A stretch of 24,000 nucleotides of DNA from Fibrobacter succinogenes (GTDB lineage: Bacteria > Fibrobacterota > Fibrobacteria > Fibrobacterales > Fibrobacteraceae): positions 1 to 24,000 of the forward strand of contig CACWPM010000030.1 of NCBI GenBank assembly GCA_902762795.1, written 5' to 3'. Under the pieces are notes generated by a model. The model did not search any database and was not told the DNA's origin. It worked only from the letters and a program-made list of their open reading frames with translations. A program made the translations under genes and the position numbers. Shown here one piece after another: positions 1 through 22,071 of the stretch; the first letter of the stretch is position 1; each line of letters begins with the position of its first letter.

Positions 1-460
1 AGACATTAGCTTCATGACGCACAGAATCCACATGAGCCGTACATTTTAACTGATTTCTAACCATTCGGCAACCACAAGCGGAAACAGAAATCATATGAAC
101 AAAATCAGCCTTCGGATTAAAAAGATGTCCCCCTACAGGATCGTCTCGCACCTCAACAGTCATTAATGATATATCCGTCCCAAAATTAGGGTCCACATGC
201 GAATGAATTAAAAAATCATAAAACAGCTTATCAGGGCCATGATAATGTCTAGTATAACAAGTTTCCCAATCCAAGCCCGTTCCACACGACACAGGATGCG
301 AAGCTTTTTTCATAAGAAGCGGAAATTCCGTCAGTTTATTCACCTGTTCATTCTGGATATCGTTCGCAGCCGTTGACGCCATGGAATTATCCACGCCAGA
401 TTCTGAGCAGCCCATCATAGCCAGCGCTAAAATAGCGGCAGACAATGTTATCTTTTTCAT
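1..460 (-). CDS. Lipoprotein, 5' part only (3' end runs off the left edge); shares its signal peptide and lipobox with the neighbouring lipoprotein genes
   Basis: Absent from the supplied ORF track because it has no in-window stop. My own translation of the minus strand from the ATG at 460..458 gives MKKITLSAAILALAMMGCSESGVDNSMASTAANDIQNEQVNKLTEFPLLMKKASHPVSCGTGLDWETCYTRHYHGPDKLFYDFLIHSHVDPNFGTDISLMTVEVRDDPVGGHLFNPKADFVHMISVSACGCRMVRNQLKCTAHVDSVRHEANV, open through position 2. An AAGGAGA RBS lies 7 nt upstream. The signal peptide is almost identical to that of 632..1315, but the mature part does not obviously align with the paralogs. Confidence 0.7.
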   Translation of the reverse strand, partial: MKKITLSAAILALAMMGCSESGVDNSMASTAANDIQNEQVNKLTEFPLLMKKASHPVSCGTGLDWETCYTRHYHGPDKLFYDFLIHSHVDPNFGTDISLMTVEVRDDPVGGHLFNPKADFVHMISVSACGCRMVRNQLKCTAHVDSVRHEANV

Positions 461-573
461 ATCAATCTCCTTTTTTATTAAATTGGTTAAATATAAAATA
501 AACTATTTATATGTTATTTTCAAGAGTTTATTTTAGTATTTCAATATAAATTTACAAAGTTTATAAAAATTTA

Positions 574-606
574 CAAAAAAAAGATAACCCGGCGGAACGC
601 CGAGTT
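574..606 (-). terminator. Rho-independent terminator downstream of the 632..1315 gene
   Basis: On the minus strand: stem CTCGGCG, loop TTC, stem CGCCGGG (7 bp, 1 mismatch), followed by TTATCTTTTTTTT. Confidence 0.6.
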
Positions 607-631
607 CTTTGCATTCTTTCAACAAAAGAAA

Positions 632-1315
632 TCAGTTCTTATTTTGAAGAGCATAATTCAAAAATCTAATATAGGCCAGAATTCCAGGAACCATATATCT
701 TTGGTACACTTTTTTCGCCACATCGGCACTTAAATTTTTACGATACGTAGCCGATAACGAAACATCACCTCCATTTATAGTAACACTTGCAGCTGCTACT
801 ATACCCACTGGATTACTGGTTGTCGACAGATCAGCGCATTCACGTGCCAATTCTGACGTATAAGAGCCACCCTGCTTTACAGCAAAATGAGATTTCTGGC
901 ATTCACCATCCGACGAACAACCTTGCACGCAAAGCGAGAACTGATGATGAGAAACGGTGTTCCGATACGGATTCCATTCACCCTGTCGTTTATCACTTTT
1001 TTTCGTAATCAAAGACCTAACAGTGTACTGGTGCCCTGCATCATAAGCATCGTCACTCGCATAAACAAAGAAACGATATATTCCGCTATCATCCAAAACT
1101 TGCCCAGACCATTCTGCTCCTGCTTTTTGAAGCGCCAACGGAGAATTAGAGTCCGGGAATTCAGGGATATCTTCGGGAACCACAGTCAATTGTTCCAAGG
1201 CATTTCTCTTTTGAATTTCACTCGTTGAAGGCATCACAGAAAGATCCATGCCAGATTCTGAGCAGCCCATCATTGCCAAAGAAAATACAGCAGCAGACAA
1301 CGTAATTTTTTTCAT
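632..1315 (-). CDS. Lipoprotein of unknown function, a paralog of the 1512-2922 genes
   Basis: Track ORF 632..1360. I prefer the internal start MKKITLSAAVFSLAMMGCSESG (ATG at 1315) because GGAGAAAATAATG supplies an RBS and the paralogs start at the same place. Motifs shared with the paralogs: CVQGCSSDGECQKS vs CVRDCDDEGNCKDN, and the C-terminus VYQRYMVPG...ALQNKN vs VYQKYLAAPLQNH. Confidence 0.8.
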   Translation of the reverse strand: MKKITLSAAVFSLAMMGCSESGMDLSVMPSTSEIQKRNALEQLTVVPEDIPEFPDSNSPLALQKAGAEWSGQVLDDSGIYRFFVYASDDAYDAGHQYTVRSLITKKSDKRQGEWNPYRNTVSHHQFSLCVQGCSSDGECQKSHFAVKQGGSYTSELARECADLSTTSNPVGIVAAASVTINGGDVSLSATYRKNLSADVAKKVYQRYMVPGILAYIRFLNYALQNKN

Positions 1316-1451
1316 TATTTTCTCCTTCCGAATTAAATTCGATGAACAAAATATAATCATCTTTTACAACTTTGTAAAGATAAAATTATACAGAATTTTA
1401 ACTTTATCAACATTAAATAAAGTTTTATAGAAACAACATATAACATACGCA

Positions 1452-1483
1452 CAAAAAAAGAACCCGGCAAAGCAAGCCGAGTT
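1452..1483 (-). terminator. Rho-independent terminator downstream of the gene ending at 1512
   Basis: On the minus strand: stem AACTCGGC, loop TTGCTTT, stem GCCGGGTT (1 mismatch), followed by CTTTTTTTG. Confidence 0.6.
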
Positions 1484-1511
1484 CATTATAGCCAAATGGG
1501 ACCAGCAAAGA

Positions 1512-2175
1512 TTAGTGGTTTTGCAAAGGTGCTGCGAGATATTTCTGATAAACAAGCAAAGCCTGATTTCTATTTTTCAATCCACTATAAGACGAACCGG
1601 TCAAGACAATTTCATCAGGCTTTCCCGCATTCACAACAGCGGCATAATTGGAAACAGTCCCCAACTCGCCATCACCACCTGCCTGGCACTGTTGATCGAA
1701 CCACGGGAAAGGTTCATTTTGGAGGTCTTTAGGTATCGGCAGAAACGTATATGGATCATGATATTGAGCTATTTCATTACTACTATTCTCACAGTTCCCT
1801 TCATCATCACAACCTCGAACACAAACCGTATATACATGAAGCATATCAACTTTTAGACTCGAATTAATATCAGGAGAACCTACCCAAACTTTTCCATGAC
1901 CACCGTATTTCGTTACTGTTGACTGTATTCCAATTCGATAACGTATTCCACCAATTCTTTCAGAAAGATCAAAAAAAGCGTAAGTATCAGGAAAATAATC
2001 ACAAATAAGCGTAGTAGTCTGTTTTTTTTAAAACAGGGACAAAATCCGCCGAATACTGATTTTGTACATCAATAATTTCGCGCGTTGTTGAAGCAACAGA
2101 ATTATCAACGCCCATATCAGAGCAGCCCATCATAAACAATGCCGAAAGCACGGCAGACAATGTTATCTTCTTCAT
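1512..2175 (-). pseudogene. Lipoprotein, downstream copy of the tandem duplication; frameshifted at an A8 homopolymer (either a phase-OFF allele or a pseudogene)
   Basis: From the ATG at 2175 the frame reads MKKITLSAVLSALFMMGCSDMGVDNS...VPVLKKTDYYAYL and stops at 1999. From codon CAG (2021..2019) the -1 frame is open to the TAA at 1512. It reads QTTTLICDYFPDTYAFFDLSERIGGIRYRIGIQSTVTKYGGHGKVWVGSPDINSSLKVDMLHVYTVCVRGCDDEGNC...LAAPLQNH and is colinear with the upstream copy. The only frame-breaking difference is T8 at 2022..2029 versus T7 at 2770..2776. Confidence 0.6.
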
Positions 2176-3024
2176 ATAAACCTCCTTATTTGTTATATAA
2201 AGTATTATAAATATACATTCATTTTTACAAAAACTCTCATTTTTTTTACACAACAACATATTATAAGCAAAATCAAAAGGTGCTGCGAGATATTTCTGAT
2301 AAACAAGCAAGGCCTGATTCATATTTTTAAATCCACTTCCTACACTATAAGTTGAACCGGTCAAGACAATTTCATCAGGCTTTCCTGCATTCACAACAGC
2401 GGCATAATAGGAAATAGTCCCCAACTCGCCATCACCTTTTTTTAGCTGGCACTGTTGATCGAACCAGTGAAGTTCTTGACCGTCTTTAGGCATCGGCAAA
2501 AACGTATATGAATCATCATATCGAACTACACCACTATTATCCTTACAGTTTCCTTCATCATCACAATCTCGAACACAAACCGTATATACATGAAGCATAT
2601 CAACTTTTAGACTCGAATTAATATCAGGAGAACCTATCCAAACTTTTCCATGACCACCGTTTTCTGATACTGTCGACGCTATTCCAATTGAATAACGCTT
2701 CCCACCAATTCTTTCAGAAGTATCAAAAAAAGAACTAGTAAACCGATCACAAATAAACGTAGTAGTCTGTTTTTTTAAAACAGGCACAAAATCCGCCGAA
2801 TACTGATTTTGTACATCAGTAATTTCTCGCGTTGTTGAAGCAACAGAATTATTAACGCCCATATCAGAGCAGCCCATCATAAACAATGCCGAAAGCACGG
2901 CAGACAATGTTATCTTCTTCATATTAACCTCCTTATTTGTTATATAAAGTATTATAAATATACATTCATTTTTACAAAAACTCTCATTTTTTTTACACAA
3001 CAACATATTATAAGCAAAATCAAA
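1527..3024. repeat. Direct tandem duplication, 2 x ~750 bp (copy B 1527..2277, copy A 2278..3024), each holding promoter, RBS and a lipoprotein gene
   Basis: 2176..2277 and 2923..3024 differ at 1 position in 102 nt. The signal-peptide coding part differs at about 4 of 142 nt. The junction is at 2277/2278 (aatcaaa|aggtgctgcgag). It joins upstream sequence (3018..3024 aatcaaa) to the gene's 3' end (1527.. aggtgctgcgag), with caaa microhomology. Confidence 0.9.
1999..2922 (-). CDS. Lipoprotein, upstream copy of the tandem duplication; it has no stop of its own and reads through the duplicated promoter into the 5' end of the next copy
   Basis: Track ORF 1999..3006. The likely start is the ATG at 2922 (MKKITLSAVLSALFMMGCSDMG), preceded by TAAGGAGGTTAAT. 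The part homologous to the family ends near 2278 (..QKYLAAP). The tail FDFAYNMLLCKKNESFCKNECIFIILYITNKEVYMKKITL... is translated promoter, RBS and signal-peptide sequence from the second copy. Confidence 0.65.
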   Translation of the reverse strand: MKKITLSAVLSALFMMGCSDMGVNNSVASTTREITDVQNQYSADFVPVLKKQTTTFICDRFTSSFFDTSERIGGKRYSIGIASTVSENGGHGKVWIGSPDINSSLKVDMLHVYTVCVRDCDDEGNCKDNSGVVRYDDSYTFLPMPKDGQELHWFDQQCQLKKGDGELGTISYYAAVVNAGKPDEIVLTGSTYSVGSGFKNMNQALLVYQKYLAAPFDFAYNMLLCKKNESFCKNECIFIILYITNKEVYMKKITLSAVLSALFMMGCSDMGVDNSVASTTREIIDVQNQYSADFVPVLKKTDYYAYL

Positions 3025-13254: not shown

Positions 13255-13360
13255 TTCGGCTCGGTTATACAGGGAAGCGAACCCGCGCAAAATGCTAGCC
13301 TCGGTTATACAGGTAAGCAAACCCGCGCAAGACCCTAGCCTCGGTTATACAGGTAAGCAC
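13255..13360. repeat. 40-bp tandem repeat, about 2.6 copies
   Basis: tcggttatac recurs at 13261, 13301 and 13341, an exact period of 40. The unit is (c)tagcctcggttatacaggtaagcaaacccgcgcaagacc, and the first copy is more diverged. Confidence 0.85.
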
Positions 13361-13375
13361 TTTTCGCCCACACTT

Positions 13376-13407
13376 TACTTCCTACTTCCTACTTCCTACT
13401 TCCTACT
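13376..13407. repeat. Heptanucleotide microsatellite (TACTTCC) x 4.6
   Basis: tacttcc occurs at 13376, 13383, 13390 and 13397, followed by a partial tact. The homologous sequence at 13219..13230 carries only 1.6 units. Confidence 0.9.
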
Positions 13408-13426
13408 AATTGCTACATTCCCCAGC

Positions 13427-16336
13427 ATGGCAGAAAAGACTTTACTCCTTCTTGATTCGTTCGCACTCGCGTTCCGCATGTTCTACGCTTACAGCCAGAA
13501 CCCGCTCGTCAACAGCAAGGGCGAAGAGGTTTCCATGATGCACGGCTACTGGGGCGCTGTGCTCCGCATTTTGGCAAAGCACAAGCCCACGCATTTTGCG
13601 ATTGCTCGCGATGTCGCGCACACCAATACTTTCCGCCACGAACTTTACCCGGACTACAAGGCCAATCGCGGCCCCATGCCCGAAGAAATGGCAGCGCAGA
13701 TGCCACTCCTCTGCGAATCTCTGGAAGCAAGCGGCATTCCGCTTTTGTCGGAACCCGGTTACGAAGCCGACGACGTGATGGCAAGCGCCGCCGAAGCCGC
13801 AGTCAACGCCGGTTTTGACCATGTCGTGATTATCAGCAAAGACAAGGACATGTCGCAAATCGTGACCGACAAGATCCACCTTTTCCATTTGGAAAAAGGC
13901 GCCGACGGCATTGATTTTGGACCGCAACAAGTCCTCGAAAAATACGGCATTCCGCCAGAAAAAATCCGCGACTACTTGGCTCTCATGGGAGATTCGAGCG
14001 ATAACGTTCCGGGCGTTCCCAAAGTCGGCCCCAAGACCGCCATCCAGCTGTTAACCGAATACGGCGACATGGACAACATTTACGCAAACCTCGACAACAT
14101 CAAGAAGAAAGGCTTGCACGACAACCTCGCGAACAACAGAGAACAAGCGTTCCTCAGCCGCGAACTCGTAACGCTACAGACAAAGCGTGCCTACAGCGGC
14201 AACCTCGATGCGCTCGAATTCTGCGGCATCCACAGTGATACGCTCGAAGGCATTTTCAGGGAACACGAAATTAACAGTCTCGTTCGCTTGCTCGAAAACG
14301 TTCCGAGCAAGACAGGCTTCGTACGCGATTCTAGCGACGGTTCCAGCGACGGCTCTCGCGCTTCCGATGGCACATCCGAAGGCGAATCCGACGACTCCAG
14401 CAAAATCGCAAAGGCCAGCTTCCCGGCCGACCTCCCGCCCACCTACATCTGCGTCGATAACGAAGAAACCTTCGAACAGATGAAATCGGAATTTGACTCT
14501 GCAACTGAAATCGGCATCGACACCGAAACCGACGGACTCGACCCGATGCAATGCAGCATCGTCGGGCTTTGCCTTGCCTCCGCCGCAAAAGACGGGAGCG
14601 TCCCCAAGGGCTACTATATTCCGCTTGGGCATACCGACGACATCGGATTCCCGTACCCCGCCGGCAAAGGCGGCAACTTCGACTTCAACGCCACAAAGAA
14701 GTGGTTTATCGATTTTTGGAACGATTCTTGCACACCCCCCGATGACATTTCCAGTAGCGACGGCATTTCCACCAACCCCAAGCGCGCCCTCGTTTTCCAT
14801 AACGCCAAATTCGACTTGCACGTTCTCGCCCGCACCTTCGGACTCACGCAAAAGCAAATCGATTCCGCAAACATCATCGACACGCTCATTGCCGCATGGA
14901 TGCTCTCGCCCGGCCAAACTGGGCTCGGCCTCGACAATCAGGTCATGCAACTTTTGCAACACGAGATGATTCCAATCGAGAATCTCATCGGGCGCGGCAA
15001 GAACCAAATCACGTTCAACCACACGCCCATCAAGGACGCCACCGAATACGGCGCCGAAGACGCCGTCTACACGCTCCGCCTCTGGGCTCCGCTCCGTGCC
15101 AAACTCCAAAAGTACGACTACGAGAAGTACTTCTTCAGCCAGGAAATGCCGCTTCTCAAGGTGCTTTACCAGATGGAAGGCGTCGGCGCATTCGTCGACA
15201 CCAAGATTCTAAAGGACCTGCAAGCCGATTTGCAGCACCGCATCGAAAAACTCGAAAAAGAAATTTGCGACATGGCCGGCTGCGAATTTAACATCGGCTC
15301 TCCCAAGCAGCTCGGCGAGGTGCTCTTCGACACGCTCGGACTCCCCGAAATCAAAAAACGCAGCACTGACGCCGCCGTCCTCGAAGAACTCAGTTTCCGC
15401 GCCGCACACCCGATCGTTTTCGCCGTCATCGAATATCGCGAACTCAAGAAGATGCAGAGCACCTACGTTTCCGTGCTTCCGACACTCGTGAATCCGGACA
15501 CCAAGCGCATCCATACGAGCTTTATCCAGTGGGGCACCGCGACAGGCCGCCTTTCGAGCCGCGACCCGAACTTGCAAAACATCCCCGTCCGTAGCGATCT
15601 CGGCAAACAAATCCGCGCCGCATTCGTACCGCAGAATCCGAACAACGTGATTCTCGCGGTGGATTACTCGCAAATTGAGCTCCGCATGCTAGCACACCTC
15701 AGCGGGGACGAAGCGCTCATCGAAAGCTACAAGGAAGGCATCGACATCCACGCCCGCACGGCAGCCGCCATCAACCGCGTAAGCCTCGAAGACGTGACCG
15801 CCGACATGCGACGCGACGCGAAGGTCGTGAACTTCGGCGTGCTCTACGGCATGACCGCCTTCCGCCTCTCCCGCGACCTGAAAATCCCGATGGCACAGGC
15901 CAAGAGTTTCATCGACGGCTACTTCGAAATGTACCAGGGCGTGCAAAAGTTCATCGAGGATACCAAGGCTGCCGCCCACCGCGACGGCTATGTCGAAACG
16001 CTTTCGGGACGCCGCCGCTACATCGCCGGCATCGACAGTTCCGACCGCATGGAATCGCAGATGGCCGAACGCATGGCCGTGAACACCCCCGTGCAAGGCA
16101 GCGCCGCCGACCTCATCAAGATCGCCATGATCCGCATTCAAAAACGCATCAACGACGAGAACCTCCCGCTCCGCATGATGCTCCAGGTACACGACGAACT
16201 CGTTTTCGAGTGCCCGCGCGAACAGGTCGAAGAGCTTTCCACCATGGTCAAGTCCGAAATGGAAGGCGCCATGGAACTCAAAGTTCCGCTCATCGCAAGC
16301 GTTGGCTACGGCAAGAACTGGCTCGAAGCACACTAA
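13427..16336 (+). CDS. polA: DNA polymerase I
   Basis: Track ORF 13292..16336 starts inside the repeats, so I chose the ATG at 13427 (MAEKTLLLLDSFALAFRMFYA, a typical 5'-nuclease N-terminus). The 3'-5' exonuclease motifs are IDTETDGLDP, HNAKFDLHVL and YGAEDAVYTLRL. The polymerase motifs are A DYSQIELRMLAH, B RRDAKVVNFGVLYG and C QVHDELVFE. Confidence 0.97.
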   Translation: MAEKTLLLLDSFALAFRMFYAYSQNPLVNSKGEEVSMMHGYWGAVLRILAKHKPTHFAIARDVAHTNTFRHELYPDYKANRGPMPEEMAAQMPLLCESLEASGIPLLSEPGYEADDVMASAAEAAVNAGFDHVVIISKDKDMSQIVTDKIHLFHLEKGADGIDFGPQQVLEKYGIPPEKIRDYLALMGDSSDNVPGVPKVGPKTAIQLLTEYGDMDNIYANLDNIKKKGLHDNLANNREQAFLSRELVTLQTKRAYSGNLDALEFCGIHSDTLEGIFREHEINSLVRLLENVPSKTGFVRDSSDGSSDGSRASDGTSEGESDDSSKIAKASFPADLPPTYICVDNEETFEQMKSEFDSATEIGIDTETDGLDPMQCSIVGLCLASAAKDGSVPKGYYIPLGHTDDIGFPYPAGKGGNFDFNATKKWFIDFWNDSCTPPDDISSSDGISTNPKRALVFHNAKFDLHVLARTFGLTQKQIDSANIIDTLIAAWMLSPGQTGLGLDNQVMQLLQHEMIPIENLIGRGKNQITFNHTPIKDATEYGAEDAVYTLRLWAPLRAKLQKYDYEKYFFSQEMPLLKVLYQMEGVGAFVDTKILKDLQADLQHRIEKLEKEICDMAGCEFNIGSPKQLGEVLFDTLGLPEIKKRSTDAAVLEELSFRAAHPIVFAVIEYRELKKMQSTYVSVLPTLVNPDTKRIHTSFIQWGTATGRLSSRDPNLQNIPVRSDLGKQIRAAFVPQNPNNVILAVDYSQIELRMLAHLSGDEALIESYKEGIDIHARTAAAINRVSLEDVTADMRRDAKVVNFGVLYGMTAFRLSRDLKIPMAQAKSFIDGYFEMYQGVQKFIEDTKAAAHRDGYVETLSGRRRYIAGIDSSDRMESQMAERMAVNTPVQGSAADLIKIAMIRIQKRINDENLPLRMMLQVHDELVFECPREQVEELSTMVKSEMEGAMELKVPLIASVGYGKNWLEAH

Positions 16337-16396
16337 AGACCGCCCGGTTTAAGCACATTCGAAGAAATTTTTTCAAAATTCGAGACAATTCTGAAG

Positions 16397-16673
16397 TTTG
16401 TACCTATAAAACTATTGTTTTATGCACTTTTATAGGTACAAAACAAGTCGTTTTCCATTCAGCAAGGCCGACCATAAGGCGAATTCTATCGAAAATGTAC
16501 CTATAAAAAATGCAAAAAATCGTTTTTATAGGTACGCCAAAACTTAGTTTATATGTAAAATTAGAAAAGTGTACCTATAAAACCTACACTTTTAAGGATT
16601 TATAGGTACGCAATTAAAAAAAAAGAGTGACCGATACCTATAAAACTTCACCGCCATCTGTTTTTATAGGTAC
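16397..16673. repeat. Array of four hairpin-type inverted-repeat units with arms GTACCTATAAAA / TTTTATAGGTAC
   Basis: Unit 1 is 16397..16442 (15-bp arms TTTGTACCTATAAAA, 16-nt loop). Unit 2 is 16497..16535 (13-bp arms, 13-nt loop). Unit 3 is 16571..16609 (11-bp arms, 17-nt loop). Unit 4 is 16635..16673 (11-bp arms TACCTATAAAA, 16-nt loop). The loops and the sequences between units are unrelated. Confidence 0.85.
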
Positions 16674-16877
16674 CGAAACAAAAAGCATAGTACAGAAGAG
16701 TATTACGCACTGTTTTGGGGCATATTTTCAGACTTCACAGATTAAGAAAAATTAAAGAACATTCTTAAACAGTGCCCTTTCAAAACGTTCTCAAAAACAG
16801 TTCTCAATTTTTCAGTTAACTTCCATCACACTTTTTATTACAAAGTTGATATTTTTCTCAAAATATTTTTTTCTCTA

Positions 16878-16906
16878 TTGCGTTTTTCCCCGTTATCATA
16901 TATATT
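16878..16906 (+). promoter_or_regulatory. Candidate sigma70-like promoter for the GH5 gene
   Basis: TTGCGT (16878..16883), 17 nt spacer, TATATT (16901..16906). This would give a ~150-nt leader. It is a pattern match only, and FCB-group promoters may not follow this consensus. Confidence 0.25.
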
Positions 16907-17062
16907 AATAGCAAAACAACGGGTGTATTCTAAGGTGTTTGAGAAAAAGGATGTTTAAGATCAGGCCAACAGGCCTCGCAATGTTCTCAAAAAATTTCTA
17001 AAAACCATTAAGAAAACAACGGCAAAGACACCCACAACAAGTTACTATAAGGAGTCTTCGAC

Positions 17063-19165
17063 ATGAGATTCAATACCTTTGGCATCGCCGCAAGCTCACT
17101 GCTCTTAGCCGCAGCTTCGGCTTTTGCGCTTCCCAAGGCAACGGAAATTTTCCCCAAAATGGGCCTCGGCTACAACATCGGCAACACGATGGAAGTTCCG
17201 GGAAACCAAGGCGGCCCGACCGGATGGGGCAACCCATTCCCGGACTCCGCTTACGTGAAGGCTATCAAGGACGCCGGTTTCAACACGGTGCGCATCCCTT
17301 GCGCCTGGAATAGCCACTCCTCTAACGGCACAATCAACGCCGGCTGGCTCGACTCCGTCAAGACTGTCGTCGATCTCGTCATCAGCAACGGCATGTACGC
17401 CATCTTAAACAGCCACTGGGACGAAGGCTGGCTCGAAGACCACGTGTTCGACGGTGAAGGCTACGACAAGACCGGTCTCGTGAACAGCTCCGCAGCAGCA
17501 GTCGCCGCCAAGCAGGAATCTTACTGGAAGCAAATCGCCACCAAGTTCGCTGAATATGACGAGCACTTGATTTTCGCCTCCGCCAACGAACCGGGCGTGA
17601 ACGACCCGTGGAACGGCGGTGCCGATAACGGCCAATGGGCATTCGATTCCAAGCGCATGACCATCCTCAAGCAATTCCATGAAGCATGCCTCAAAGGAGT
17701 GCGCTCCACCGGCGGCAACAACGCCACACGCATCGTGGTCGTGCAGTCGCCGCGTACCGAAATCGACAAGGCCCCGCTCCTCTCCGAACAGTACCCGACC
17801 GACCCGGCAGGCGAAGGCTACACAATGGCCGAAGTCCACTTCTACCCCTACCAGTTCTCGCTCATGACTGACGGCGACGAAGACTGGGGCAAGATGTTCT
17901 ACTACTGGGAAGATCAAAACCCGGGCAACGATGCCCCGCACACCTGTTCCGGCACCGCACTCGGATCCAAGCAGTCCATCGACAAACTGTTCAGCGGCCT
18001 CAAGACTCGTTTCTACGATAAGGGCATTCCGGTCGTGATCGGCGAAATGGGCGCCGTCAAACGCCTCGACCTTCTCTCCGGCGACAATTTGAAAGTCCAT
18101 TTGAAGGCTCGCGCCGCTTGGTACGGCTACACGGTCGCAGCAGCCAAGAAGAACGGCCTCGTCCCTTGCGTTTGGGACACAGGCGATGAAGGCAACGGCA
18201 ACTTCACCATCATCCGCCGCCAGGTACACAAGTACCAGGGCAAGGTGGGCGACATCACCGACATAGAAACCCTAAACGCCATGCGCGAAGCCTATGGACA
18301 AGCAGCACTTCCAGGAAACACCATCGACTCCACCGTCAAAGAACATACAGAAATTCTCGATGGCGACATGGCTCTTCACATCTCCTACAAGACCGTTCAG
18401 GCAGACTCTAGCGAAGCAGGCACCATGCGTATCGACATCAACAAGAGCTGGAGCCAGTACGTCGCAATCTCCTTTGACATGCGAGTCGCAGGCGATATCG
18501 CAGGCCCGTGTTTGGACACCTCCCGCGACGGTTGCGGCGAATACGGCTGGGCAAGCGTCTCCGTATTCAACATGAGCGGCGAATGGAAATGGAACGAAGT
18601 CTCTCTCGGCAACGTCGAGGACCTCGGCACCCTCAAGAACTACAAGATCGAATTCGGCGAAGAAGAAAGGCAGCTCGCATTCACGGACCTTACTAAGGTA
18701 AACGCCATCGGCATCAACGTTTACGGCACGCAATTTACCGGCGACATGTACCTCGACAATCTACTCCTCTGGAAAGCTGACGGCACCGCAGACACGCTCC
18801 AGAATTTCAATACCAAAAAGCCCAAACTCGAAGGCACCGCCAAGGGCGAACTCATCAAGGCGAACGCAACGGGTGACTGGGACACAGATACAAAGAGCGA
18901 CATTTGCATGCCAAGCATCGCCAAGGCGAGAAGCCTCCGCGTAAACGTGCAGCCGGGAGTTGTCAGCGCAACCTTCACCACCAGCAAAGCCTCTCACGGC
19001 ACAGCAACGCTCATGAACACACTCGGCCAGACTATCGCACAGCAGAGCTTCAACACAAAGGCCGGCGCCAACGAAGTCAAGTTCAGCACAAACTTCCGTG
19101 GCGCGGCAGTTCTCATCGTCAAAACGGGTAGCCAAAAAATCGTGCAACAAGTAAACCTCCGCTAA
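17063..19165 (+). CDS. Glycoside hydrolase family 5 endo-beta-1,4-glucanase with a CBM-like beta-sandwich module and a C-terminal secretion/sorting domain
   Basis: 700 aa with an AAGGAG RBS and the signal peptide MRFNTFGIAASSLLLAAASAFA. GH5 hallmarks are GYNIGNTME, FNTVRIPCAW, the acid/base in IFASANEP and the nucleophile in VVIGEMGA. Residues ~425-575 look like a jelly-roll CBM (ends GDMYLDNLLLWK). The last ~75 aa (VSATFTTSKASHGTATLMNTLGQTIAQQSF..AAVLIVKTGSQKIVQQVNLR) resemble a T9SS-type CTD or the basic terminal domain of Fibrobacter enzymes. Confidence 0.93.
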   Translation: MRFNTFGIAASSLLLAAASAFALPKATEIFPKMGLGYNIGNTMEVPGNQGGPTGWGNPFPDSAYVKAIKDAGFNTVRIPCAWNSHSSNGTINAGWLDSVKTVVDLVISNGMYAILNSHWDEGWLEDHVFDGEGYDKTGLVNSSAAAVAAKQESYWKQIATKFAEYDEHLIFASANEPGVNDPWNGGADNGQWAFDSKRMTILKQFHEACLKGVRSTGGNNATRIVVVQSPRTEIDKAPLLSEQYPTDPAGEGYTMAEVHFYPYQFSLMTDGDEDWGKMFYYWEDQNPGNDAPHTCSGTALGSKQSIDKLFSGLKTRFYDKGIPVVIGEMGAVKRLDLLSGDNLKVHLKARAAWYGYTVAAAKKNGLVPCVWDTGDEGNGNFTIIRRQVHKYQGKVGDITDIETLNAMREAYGQAALPGNTIDSTVKEHTEILDGDMALHISYKTVQADSSEAGTMRIDINKSWSQYVAISFDMRVAGDIAGPCLDTSRDGCGEYGWASVSVFNMSGEWKWNEVSLGNVEDLGTLKNYKIEFGEEERQLAFTDLTKVNAIGINVYGTQFTGDMYLDNLLLWKADGTADTLQNFNTKKPKLEGTAKGELIKANATGDWDTDTKSDICMPSIAKARSLRVNVQPGVVSATFTTSKASHGTATLMNTLGQTIAQQSFNTKAGANEVKFSTNFRGAAVLIVKTGSQKIVQQVNLR

Positions 19166-21116: not shown

Positions 21117-21935
21117 TCATAACACCTCTTTGGAAAGAGGAAACAGTTGCAAATTCAGCCTGTAAACTTGTTTGATATCGCAGCAACCTTCAGCTATCGC
21201 CGTAATTTTCTTGCGACATTCGTCCAGTTCGCGAACAATGCGTTCGTACGCCTCATGGTCAACACCCATCGTGATGCCCGTAATGTTGCGCTCATTTGCG
21301 GTAAAGCGGTCCAGTGCATCTACCGCGAGATAGCCCATTTGACGATGCATCGAACGGATTGCAAGCGGCAACCCCTCCTTGGAGCCTTCCACAGATTTTT
21401 CCGTCTGCTCGTAAACGTTATCTTCAACTAGCTTAAGAAAGCCGGCACGTTCCAAAAACTGGAGCGACTTGCGCACTTCCGTCGCAGAGACATCCTGCGT
21501 GCACGCCTTGGCAATCTCGCTCGGCACGGCCCCCTGCATCATCGGGGCAAGTTCGCGAATGACCGGATTTTTCCAACTATCGTAATATTCAAAAGCGTCC
21601 TTATCGACAACACGAACCTTATGCTCAAAGGCGATAGACTGCATCTGCTCTAAAAACGTTTTCCTAACATCGTCCGTCTTCGCATTGCCAAACTGGACCA
21701 TCGCCTCGAAATAGGTCACCTCGTAGCCTACAAGCCCCATCACCTTAGCCACGCGCCCCATAGTCGTCTTGCTCAAATTGGTTTTGCTTTCACTAACCAT
21801 TTTGAGATACGAGGGCGAAACAAACCCTGCTATTTTCGCAAATTCACGCCACGAAAATGCAGAAGTACGCTTGCGCTCTTCATAATAGTCGCGCAAATAA
21901 GCGTGGTAATTCTGGTATTCAACGATCGGCCTCAT
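21117..21935 (-). CDS. TIGR02147-like cytoplasmic protein with an N-terminal HTH-like region (first gene of cassette 1)
   Basis: Track ORF 21117..21965 begins at a GTG, and I prefer the ATG at 21935 (MRPIVEYQNYHAYLRDYYEERKRTSAFSWREFAKIAGFVSPSYLKMVSESKTNLS). A second winged-helix-like stretch is ATEVRKSLQFLERAGFLK. There is no signal peptide or TM segment. The family call is from memory of the Fibrobacter paralogous family (TIGR02147 / DUF4423). Confidence 0.8.
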   Translation of the reverse strand: MRPIVEYQNYHAYLRDYYEERKRTSAFSWREFAKIAGFVSPSYLKMVSESKTNLSKTTMGRVAKVMGLVGYEVTYFEAMVQFGNAKTDDVRKTFLEQMQSIAFEHKVRVVDKDAFEYYDSWKNPVIRELAPMMQGAVPSEIAKACTQDVSATEVRKSLQFLERAGFLKLVEDNVYEQTEKSVEGSKEGLPLAIRSMHRQMGYLAVDALDRFTANERNITGITMGVDHEAYERIVRELDECRKKITAIAEGCCDIKQVYRLNLQLFPLSKEVL

Positions 21936-22071
21936 ACAACCGAAATATATATTCCAAGAATACACCCGTCAATAGATTATAGTACATTTTTTGTCTTTTT
22001 ATTTAAATTTTAACAATTAAATGTACTTTAGAAACATATTTCATAAAATATAGTACATTCATGCAGCACAC

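Follow-up and report, generated by a model that had tools for sequence, protein, structure and literature searches.

We analysed a 24,000-nucleotide window of Fibrobacter succinogenes DNA (contig CACWPM010000030.1, positions 1 to 24,000), in which an array of four interrupted palindromes lies in the 726-bp spacer between polA (13292–16336) and a GH5 cellulase gene (17063–19165). Positions 16363–16684, which hold the array, are one copy of a dispersed non-coding Fibrobacter repeat module of about 320 bp. Judging from the sequence, a dimeric protein most likely recognises its units as duplex DNA and not as hairpins. The candidate protein belongs to a family with a predicted nuclease fold that adjoins such arrays, and which we call AAP, for array-associated protein, a label coined in this analysis. 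We regard the overall picture, a duplex-read module with AAP as its partner, as probable. Our confidence is higher for the dispersed module and for duplex, phased protein sites, and lower for the idea that AAP spreads the modules.

A dispersed intergenic module

Eight arms matching GTACCTATAAAA make up the array (16400, 16497, 16571 and 16634, and, on the minus strand, 16428, 16524, 16598 and 16662), six of them exactly and two with one mismatch. At up to two mismatches the motif was found 10 times in the window against 1.37 expected, a count reached by 0 of 100 shuffles. The only matches elsewhere in the 24 kb, both with two mismatches, lie at 1423 and 20199, distant from the array. Ten matches where about 1.4 would occur by chance indicate that the four palindromic units are real, as an initial annotation of the window had claimed. 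Its left-arm spacings of 97 and 74 bp also stand, while the last, given as 64 bp, is 63 bp; the three correspond to 9, 7 and 6 helical turns. Within the units, the 11-mers TACCTATAAAA and TTTTATAGGTA are separated by 16, 15, 15 and 16 nt, and measured from 11-mer to 11-mer the units are 38, 37, 37 and 38 nt long. The conserved module exceeds the feature first reported, running from 16363 to at least 16684.

Counting the motif in other genomes revealed a repeat family. Scanning one genome per species for the exact pattern gave 71 loci, and a metagenome scan gave 97 more; 132 loci, all intergenic, carried at least two units. Most exact-pattern loci were from Fibrobacter and several from rumen Clostridia, and one Eubacteriales metagenome-assembled genome carried about 10 arrays. 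Clusters range from two to nine units. The commonest Fibrobacter cluster has four, whose starts lie successively 96 or 85, 74 and 63 bp apart, and it occurs in either orientation; in clusters of the Eubacteriales assembly the units repeat in tandem every 84 bp. Viral contigs gave only one match, to a single unit. The interspersed family proposed in the initial annotation, resembling repetitive extragenic palindromes (REPs) and bacterial interspersed mosaic elements (BIMEs), is thus borne out by many intergenic Fibrobacter copies.

Membership of the window copy in this family could be observed directly. Dozens of loci align with positions 16363–16684 at 72–80% identity, and their flanks have no relation to polA or GH5. 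When 22 non-redundant copies were aligned, every linker could be recognised and each unit had a characteristic loop of its own. Compared with the window copy, the 21 others were identical at 77–99% in the arms, 43–71% in the loops, 54–60% in the linkers and 24–31% in the flanks. The four loops had been described as unrelated, which is correct within the window, but each of them resembles its positional counterparts in other copies, at an identity well above that of the flanks.

Flank contexts of the module number 56 at most, and it is intergenic in all of them. Neighbouring genes were convergent in 19, tandem in 22 and divergent in 5 of the 46 contexts that could be classified, with an enrichment of the module at the 3' ends of genes. 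The neighbours are unrelated housekeeping genes, for example those for MatE, extracytoplasmic function (ECF) sigma factors, UvrD, IF3 and SHMT. No Pfam family was enriched among 86 array-flanking genes, in which recurring families reflect orthologous contexts; the largest flank cluster, of Fib_succ_major paralogues, was judged to reflect background abundance. Intergenic sites, unrelated neighbours and the rarity of divergent contexts suggest a tolerated intergenic repeat and not the operator of a regulon.

Close relatives of the window lack the module at the same site, again a direct observation. The polA product of the window is 91–94% identical to Fibrobacter proteins, and five relatives at this level, including Fibrobacter sp. 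UWB4 and an F. succinogenes-type contig, keep the polA–GH5 order without the module, with a spacer of about 400–445 bp. Window position 16362 marks the end of homology to these relatives, which returns at about 16785; they carry about 95 bp where the window carries about 420 bp. Their 95 bp contain, just after polA, a GC-rich hairpin GACCCGTTTATACGGGTC followed by a T-run (L170:6920–7020), which from its sequence is likely the polA terminator. This terminator is missing from the window (compare 16337–16362), and the module occupies its place. Absence of the module from the polA–GH5 spacer of close relatives implies that it is gained and lost on a short evolutionary timescale.

Fixed half-site spacing and helical phasing

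The spacer between the conserved 11-mers is 15 or 16 nt in 166 of 191 units (87%; 72 sources). The initial annotation had taken the loops to be variable, at 13–17 nt, and had argued from this against a dimeric DNA-binding protein. That spread results from chance extra pairing beside the arms, and with half-sites fixed at N15–16 the objection to a dimer falls away.

The distances between units are quantised. For 236 adjacent unit pairs, from which identical linkers had been removed, mean centre-to-centre distances were 53, 62.7, 74.0, 84.3, 95.2 and 106 bp for 5 to 10 turns, and 127, 158.7, 168.4 and 181 bp for 12, 15, 16 and 17 turns, with no distances falling between these values. The best-fit period of 10.60 bp (Rayleigh R=0.914) matches the helical repeat of duplex DNA. 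Taken alone, the 26 distinct integer spacings gave R=0.77, whereas the highest value among 2000 random sets was 0.64. Linkers that differ wholly in sequence keep equal length (46 bp in about 10 arrays of one Eubacteriales assembly), and the dyad centre is 82–95% A/T, the remainder of the spacer being unconstrained. Geometry and phasing, both directly observed, are those of an operator array, with inverted half-sites, fixed spacing and sites in helical phase. Together, the fixed spacer, the 10.6-bp phasing and the AT-rich centre point to duplex DNA bound on one face. Hairpins, which the initial annotation had favoured, do not explain multiples of 10.6 bp or an AT-rich dyad centre, both of them duplex properties.

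Fixed half-site spacing and phased sites are also found with cooperative repressors and activators, and the GH5 start lies 390 bp downstream of the array. The units might accordingly be operators for a transcription factor controlling the cellulase gene or polA. We consider this highly improbable, as the module stands beside unrelated housekeeping genes in frequently convergent and seldom divergent contexts, and the relatives keep the polA–GH5 order and the promoter-proximal sequence without it. A promoter or regulon operator array was also rejected as a general description on account of the unrelated neighbours, the arrays 5' of the AAP gene being the exception. Scans for promoters and terminators found nothing above shuffles.

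A different reading takes the units for classical REP/BIME hairpins of single-stranded DNA, moved by a REP-associated tyrosine transposase (RAYT), an IS200/IS605-type HUH enzyme, encoded elsewhere. By comparison of their features, REP/BIMEs with RAYTs, known from Enterobacteria and Pseudomonas, are the closest analogue that we can name, with a different enzyme class and a different DNA form. The likeness extends to extragenic palindromic units of about 35–40 nt, present in many copies, that form mosaics with conserved linkers and are sometimes in tandem, to the bias towards gene 3' ends, and to presence and absence among close relatives. In both systems a protein gene is flanked by or adjoins its own repeats, and protein lineages pair with different repeats. 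As single-stranded DNA, each unit folds into a stable hairpin (−6.7 to −11.3 kcal/mol, z −4.4 to −6.5 against shuffles). Nevertheless, we think this reading very unlikely. The units have a non-palindromic centre of 15–16 nt, fixed in length but not in sequence, where REPs form tight hairpins; the spacing is quantised at 10.6 bp, which implies duplex recognition and would be meaningless for isolated hairpins; and the Fibrobacter units are symmetric, with TAC at both outer ends, and lack the asymmetric GTAG/GTGG head. Copy number also seems low, at no more than six arrays per genome in the exact-match scan, compared with hundreds of REPs. The 86 flanking genes included no transposase family, and a search of 170 loci for a gene enclosed between TACCTATAAAA units, RAYT-style, found none. 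The RAYT or IS200-type enzyme put forward as a candidate in the initial annotation was not seen beside any array, in a search that covered the neighbourhoods of arrays and not whole genomes. The only recurrent neighbour is AAP, whose predicted fold is of the PD-(D/E)xK type and not that of an HUH Y1 transposase.

Changes in the arms bear on the same question. One-sided changes far outnumber compensated ones, for example 39 versus 4 at position 1, which argues against hairpins, although double complementary changes are somewhat enriched. The compensation test does not discriminate between the two readings, because a homodimer site would likewise change symmetrically. The units may conceivably have a secondary role as hairpins.

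We also weighed a role at the RNA level, in which the module would be a polA 3'-UTR stabiliser or processing site, a GH5 5' leader or a four-hairpin small non-coding RNA family. The whole module folds as RNA at −77.6 kcal/mol (z −6.3), units 3 and 4 forming their own hairpins and units 1 and 2 pairing across each other in a nested arrangement. The enrichment at gene 3' ends and the replacement of the polA terminator in the window would suit such a role as well. However, invariant stems with drifting loops are the reverse of what structural RNAs display, orientation to neighbouring genes is inconsistent, and helical phasing and linkers that keep their length while their sequence varies are DNA properties. 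An Rfam covariance-model scan of 16000–17400 matched no family (best score 25.2 bits against a threshold of 139.7 bits; every E-value at least 0.49). The same interval contains no terminator-like site, and the stems are AT-rich with 15–16-nt loops; intrinsic terminators were therefore rejected, in agreement with the initial annotation. We judge an RNA-level role distinctly unlikely.

AAP, a candidate partner protein

Gene families beside arrays were found by clustering all array-flanking genes. Only the AAP family adjoined arrays both in several Fibrobacter lineages and in the Eubacteriales assembly, with the array directly 5' of its gene in each clustered case. The proteins have about 265–300 residues, typically about 270. 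Those of the L037 type are 88–98% identical among themselves. Identity to L037 is 73–78% for L133 and L163, 57–64% for L090 and L032, and 38% for L027, from the Eubacteriales assembly. The family was seen here in Fibrobacterota and Clostridia.

As an independent test, the contigs of five distant AAP homologues were fetched by protein sequence, without use of any DNA motif. All five loci adjoin arrays of 38–40-nt dyads with geometry and phasing as in the window and with different arms. Beside P0243 (L178), units of the form TTACGGCTAGAA-N16-TTCTAGCCGTAA are spaced at 63 bp, six of them upstream and seven downstream. P0281 (L180) has four units upstream (TTACTGCC...GGCAGTAA; spacing 73, 74 and 73 bp), and P0340 (L181) has five 38-nt units upstream (TGCGGATAGG...), spaced at 105, 83, 74 and 63 bp. 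In Fibrobacter sp. UWEL, P0232 (L182) is followed by four units TGCATACTAAA-N16-TTTAGTATGCA at 64, 106 and about 63 bp, three of which were found by motif search and the fourth read by eye. The largest array, 14 units TTACCTGATAC...GCAGCAGGTAA spaced at 73–74 bp, lies upstream of P0352 (L204). Most arms at the five loci start with TAC, and no other neighbouring gene is common to the five contexts.

A uniform array detector that required three or more units with a common arm was run as a control; 195 kb of control loci yielded one array, and 34 kb of AAP loci yielded five chains, at L178 and L204. The single control array belongs to a second Fibrobacter family of 38-nt dyads (GGCGGTGAAA-N18-TTTCACCGCC). 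The arrays at L180, L181 and L182 are imperfect and were identified by reading the sequence and by motif searches.

Two features of the clostridial locus beside P0340 are worth recording. Its spacings (L181:2449–2811) are graded toward the gene start, resembling the 97, 74 and 63 bp of the window, which hints at a common higher-order architecture. Just upstream of the dyad array (L181:2318–2365) are three tandem 15-bp copies of AGGTACCTAAGTCAA, which contains GGTACC.

Co-location of AAP with arrays is thus directly observed, and the co-variation of AAP lineage with arm sequence is evidence of the kind that linked RAYTs to REPs. The same arrays could instead be sites for a host chromosome-organising protein unrelated to AAP, the AAP gene being merely regulated by the arrays or tolerant of them. 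Phased, AT-rich sites flanked by A-tracts would suit DNA wrapping or bridging, and arms that stay conserved between species at syntenic sites imply selection acting on the host. Against this, the arms differ between the contexts of AAP homologues, of which AAP is the only common neighbour, and a general nucleoid protein would not be expected to shift its specificity with one neighbouring gene. We regard such an organiser as unlikely.

AAP matched no family in Pfam, NCBIfam, PHROGs or the PDB sequences, yet its relatives are numerous. Word-index searches returned 4213 and 3071 matches, and an exhaustive profile search 9150 clusters at 50% identity (3442 at E≤1e-30), with nearly all of the best matches listed being full length. 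A 50-member alignment contained the invariant motifs VRSKSE...AD, YE.P, PDF, (W)EH.G and T.E, and the invariant residues E196, D227, E242, H243 and K259. Against PADLOC models, the AAP C-terminus matched the C-terminus of PDC-S68 (E=1e-25) and HEAT_CxxC_PD-DEXK (E=7e-6). The AlphaFold2 model (predicted local distance difference test score, pLDDT, 87) had Foldseek matches in the PDB that include Bax1, DrdV and MunI, and matches among viral models to DUF2726, endonuclease I, Holliday-junction resolvase, TnsA-N, DUF559 and Vsr. These matches and the model assign the C-terminal ~110 residues to the PD-(D/E)xK nuclease fold, and nuclease activity is predicted. The N-terminal half comprises a beta-hairpin and long helices, with no recognised relative. 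The same nuclease domain also forms the C-terminus of RecD-like helicases of about 1100 residues and of one RecQ-like helicase on IMG/VR viral contigs (L184–L203); these helicases match the PADLOC candidate defence system PDC-S68.

Like the nuclease end of PDC-S68, the type II restriction enzymes SfiI and BglI share with AAP the PD-(D/E)xK fold and conserved acidic residues. A symmetric interrupted palindrome is the target expected of a homodimer, as with SfiI and BglI. Unlike theirs, the interruption here is much longer (15–16 bp), the sites are clustered, phased, conserved in the host and not avoided, no methyltransferase partner was seen, and AAP has its N-terminal domain without recognised relatives. 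In plasmid centromere and operator arrays, such as the 43-bp repeats of F sopC with SopB and R1 parC with ParR, tandem phased dyad units load many copies of one protein whose gene adjoins the array. The system described here differs from them in its many chromosomal arrays and its nuclease-fold partner, and no ParA-type ATPase gene was seen beside arrays in the AAP contexts examined.

We propose the following mechanism. The working parts would be four 38–40-bp interrupted palindromes, (G)TACCTATAAAA-N15/16-TTTTATAGGTA(C). The likeliest cognate protein would be AAP, with its gene at another place in the genome, typically just downstream of one array. We infer that AAP binds the units as a dimer, cuts DNA and spreads modules. 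A dimer would sit on each duplex unit, each subunit contacting one TAC-anchored half-site, about 27 bp apart, with the AT-rich dyad centre bending. As the units are separated by whole helical turns, all bound dimers would lie on one face of the helix, where they could build up cooperatively into a nucleoprotein array. AAP probably regulates its own gene through the array that lies 5' of it. Dispersed modules would be extra clusters of sites, which the nuclease activity has spread or which are retained because they serve chromosome structure. More tentatively, AAP and its phased arrays may form a widespread, unrecognised repeat-plus-enzyme class, in which AAP maintains or spreads modules of its own sites and the specificities of protein and repeat co-evolve, as a counterpart on duplex DNA to REPIN–RAYT systems; this broader proposal is possible, and on balance we hold it somewhat doubtful.

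Several observations weigh against the proposed partnership or the duplex reading. No AAP gene lies within the 24-kb window, in line with the statement in the initial annotation that no gene there explains the units. Co-location of AAP and arrays amounts to about eight independent contexts, and the uniform three-unit detector passed only two of the five protein-fetched loci. Specificity does not track identity: the TACCTATAAAA motif is common to Fibrobacter and Eubacteriales AAPs that are 38% identical, and an AAP 66% identical to the Eubacteriales one adjoins arrays whose motif is different. Simple autoregulation, or regulation by another factor, would also place an array upstream of the AAP gene. 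The Foldseek matches in the PDB are weak (E 0.03–0.6). The arms are able to pair as hairpins, and symmetric arm changes fit hairpin and dimer alike. Finally, no target-site duplication or clean insertion boundary was found at the polA–GH5 site, where the module replaced existing sequence instead of inserting cleanly; without such a duplication, module turnover does not appear to proceed by simple cut-and-paste insertion.

The last point also separates the module from MITEs (miniature inverted-repeat transposable elements). Like MITEs, it is non-coding, dispersed, a few hundred base pairs long and variably present in relatives. Unlike them, it has no detectable target-site duplication, its leader and tail are not inverted copies, no related insertion sequence was seen and its interior consists of predicted phased binding sites. 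CRISPR arrays were rejected on other grounds, as loops and linkers are conserved between loci, periods are 63–97 bp and the arrays have no flanking cas genes.

Palindromic repeats with a dedicated enzyme have so far been understood mainly through REPs and RAYTs, that is, through single-stranded hairpins and an HUH transposase. If confirmed, AAP and its arrays would be a second solution, mechanistically unlike the first, in which a nuclease-fold protein reads duplex dyads in helical phase. They would, moreover, open a first route to the function of a large protein family for which neither Pfam nor NCBIfam has a model, and account for arrays that repeat finders may take for CRISPRs or hairpins. 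The co-varying pairs of protein and site could serve as a natural library of long programmable DNA-recognition modules. In Fibrobacter, modules remodel intergenic regions beside key fibre-degrading genes, as here, where the polA terminator has been replaced. Our search of the searchable literature for the motif, for Fibrobacter repeats, for such arrays and for REPs together with PD-(D/E)xK found no description. A 'questionable CRISPR' of Flavobacterium columnare that contains TTTTATAGGTA is unrelated.

Parts of the window copy and further observations

The window copy can be divided into a leader, four units with three linkers, and a tail; the units carry no strand assignment, and all other parts are given on the plus strand. 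The 5' leader (16363–16399) has the consensus caaaatt.aagacaattctgaagtt. Similarity to other copies begins between 16363 and 16373, and identity to the 21 copies is 61% in the leader versus 24% in the upstream flank. Unit 1 (16400–16439) reads GTACCTATAAAA-N16-TTTTATAGGTAC with both arms exact, and its identity across copies is 0.97 and 0.99 in the arms and 0.71 in the loop. It is followed by linker 1 (16440–16496), 57 bp long with the consensus AAAACAGG...AATTCTAT and 57% identity across copies; a variant about 11 bp shorter occurs in other copies and preserves the helical phase.

Both arms are also exact in unit 2 (16497–16535; GTACCTATAAAA-N15-TTTTATAGGTAC), where identity across copies is 0.90 and 0.89 in the arms and 0.65 in the loop. 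Linker 2 (16536–16570) has 35 bp, the consensus cTTaatTT.Tat..AAAAa..aAAA and 60% identity. The right arm of unit 3 (16571–16609; GTACCTATAAAA-N15-ATTTATAGGTAC) has one mismatch; identity is 0.94 in both arms and 0.43 in the loop. After linker 3 (16610–16633), an A-rich segment of 24 bp with 54% identity, comes unit 4 (16634–16673; ATACCTATAAAA-N16-TTTTATAGGTAC), with one mismatch in its left arm. This unit has arm identities of 0.77 and 0.81 and is missing from several copies.

The tail of the module and the remaining window-specific segment span 16674–16784. Similarity to most copies stops near 16684, and extends to 16728–16739 in a subfamily comprising L004, L083 and relatives. Homology to the module-free relatives returns at about 16785, at GTTCTCAAAAA. 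This sequence occurs twice upstream of GH5 (16787–16797 and 16983–16993), in blocks that are conserved in the module-free UWB4, and may act as a promoter or regulatory element for the cellulase gene.

The second dyad family, noted above as the single control array, lies upstream of polA at L177:2597–2824, where three 38-nt units GGCGGTGAAA-N18-TTTCACCGCC are spaced at 95 and 95 bp. These units are absent from the window and possibly stand at the equivalent place in L170, L175 and L176. Their geometry and phasing, like those of the TACCTATAAAA units, suggest that several motif families exist per Fibrobacter genome.

Two observations concern the window away from the array. A DUF4423 gene lies at 21117–21965 on the minus strand, 4.5 kb from the array, and DUF4423 paralogues are found within a few kilobases of arrays at four further loci (L077, L140, L147 and L163). 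DUF4423 has many paralogues per genome, and its link to the arrays was judged compatible with chance. At the other end of the window, positions 1–3000 have a GC content of 34–40%, compared with about 45–60% in most of the remainder, and may be foreign or otherwise atypical DNA.

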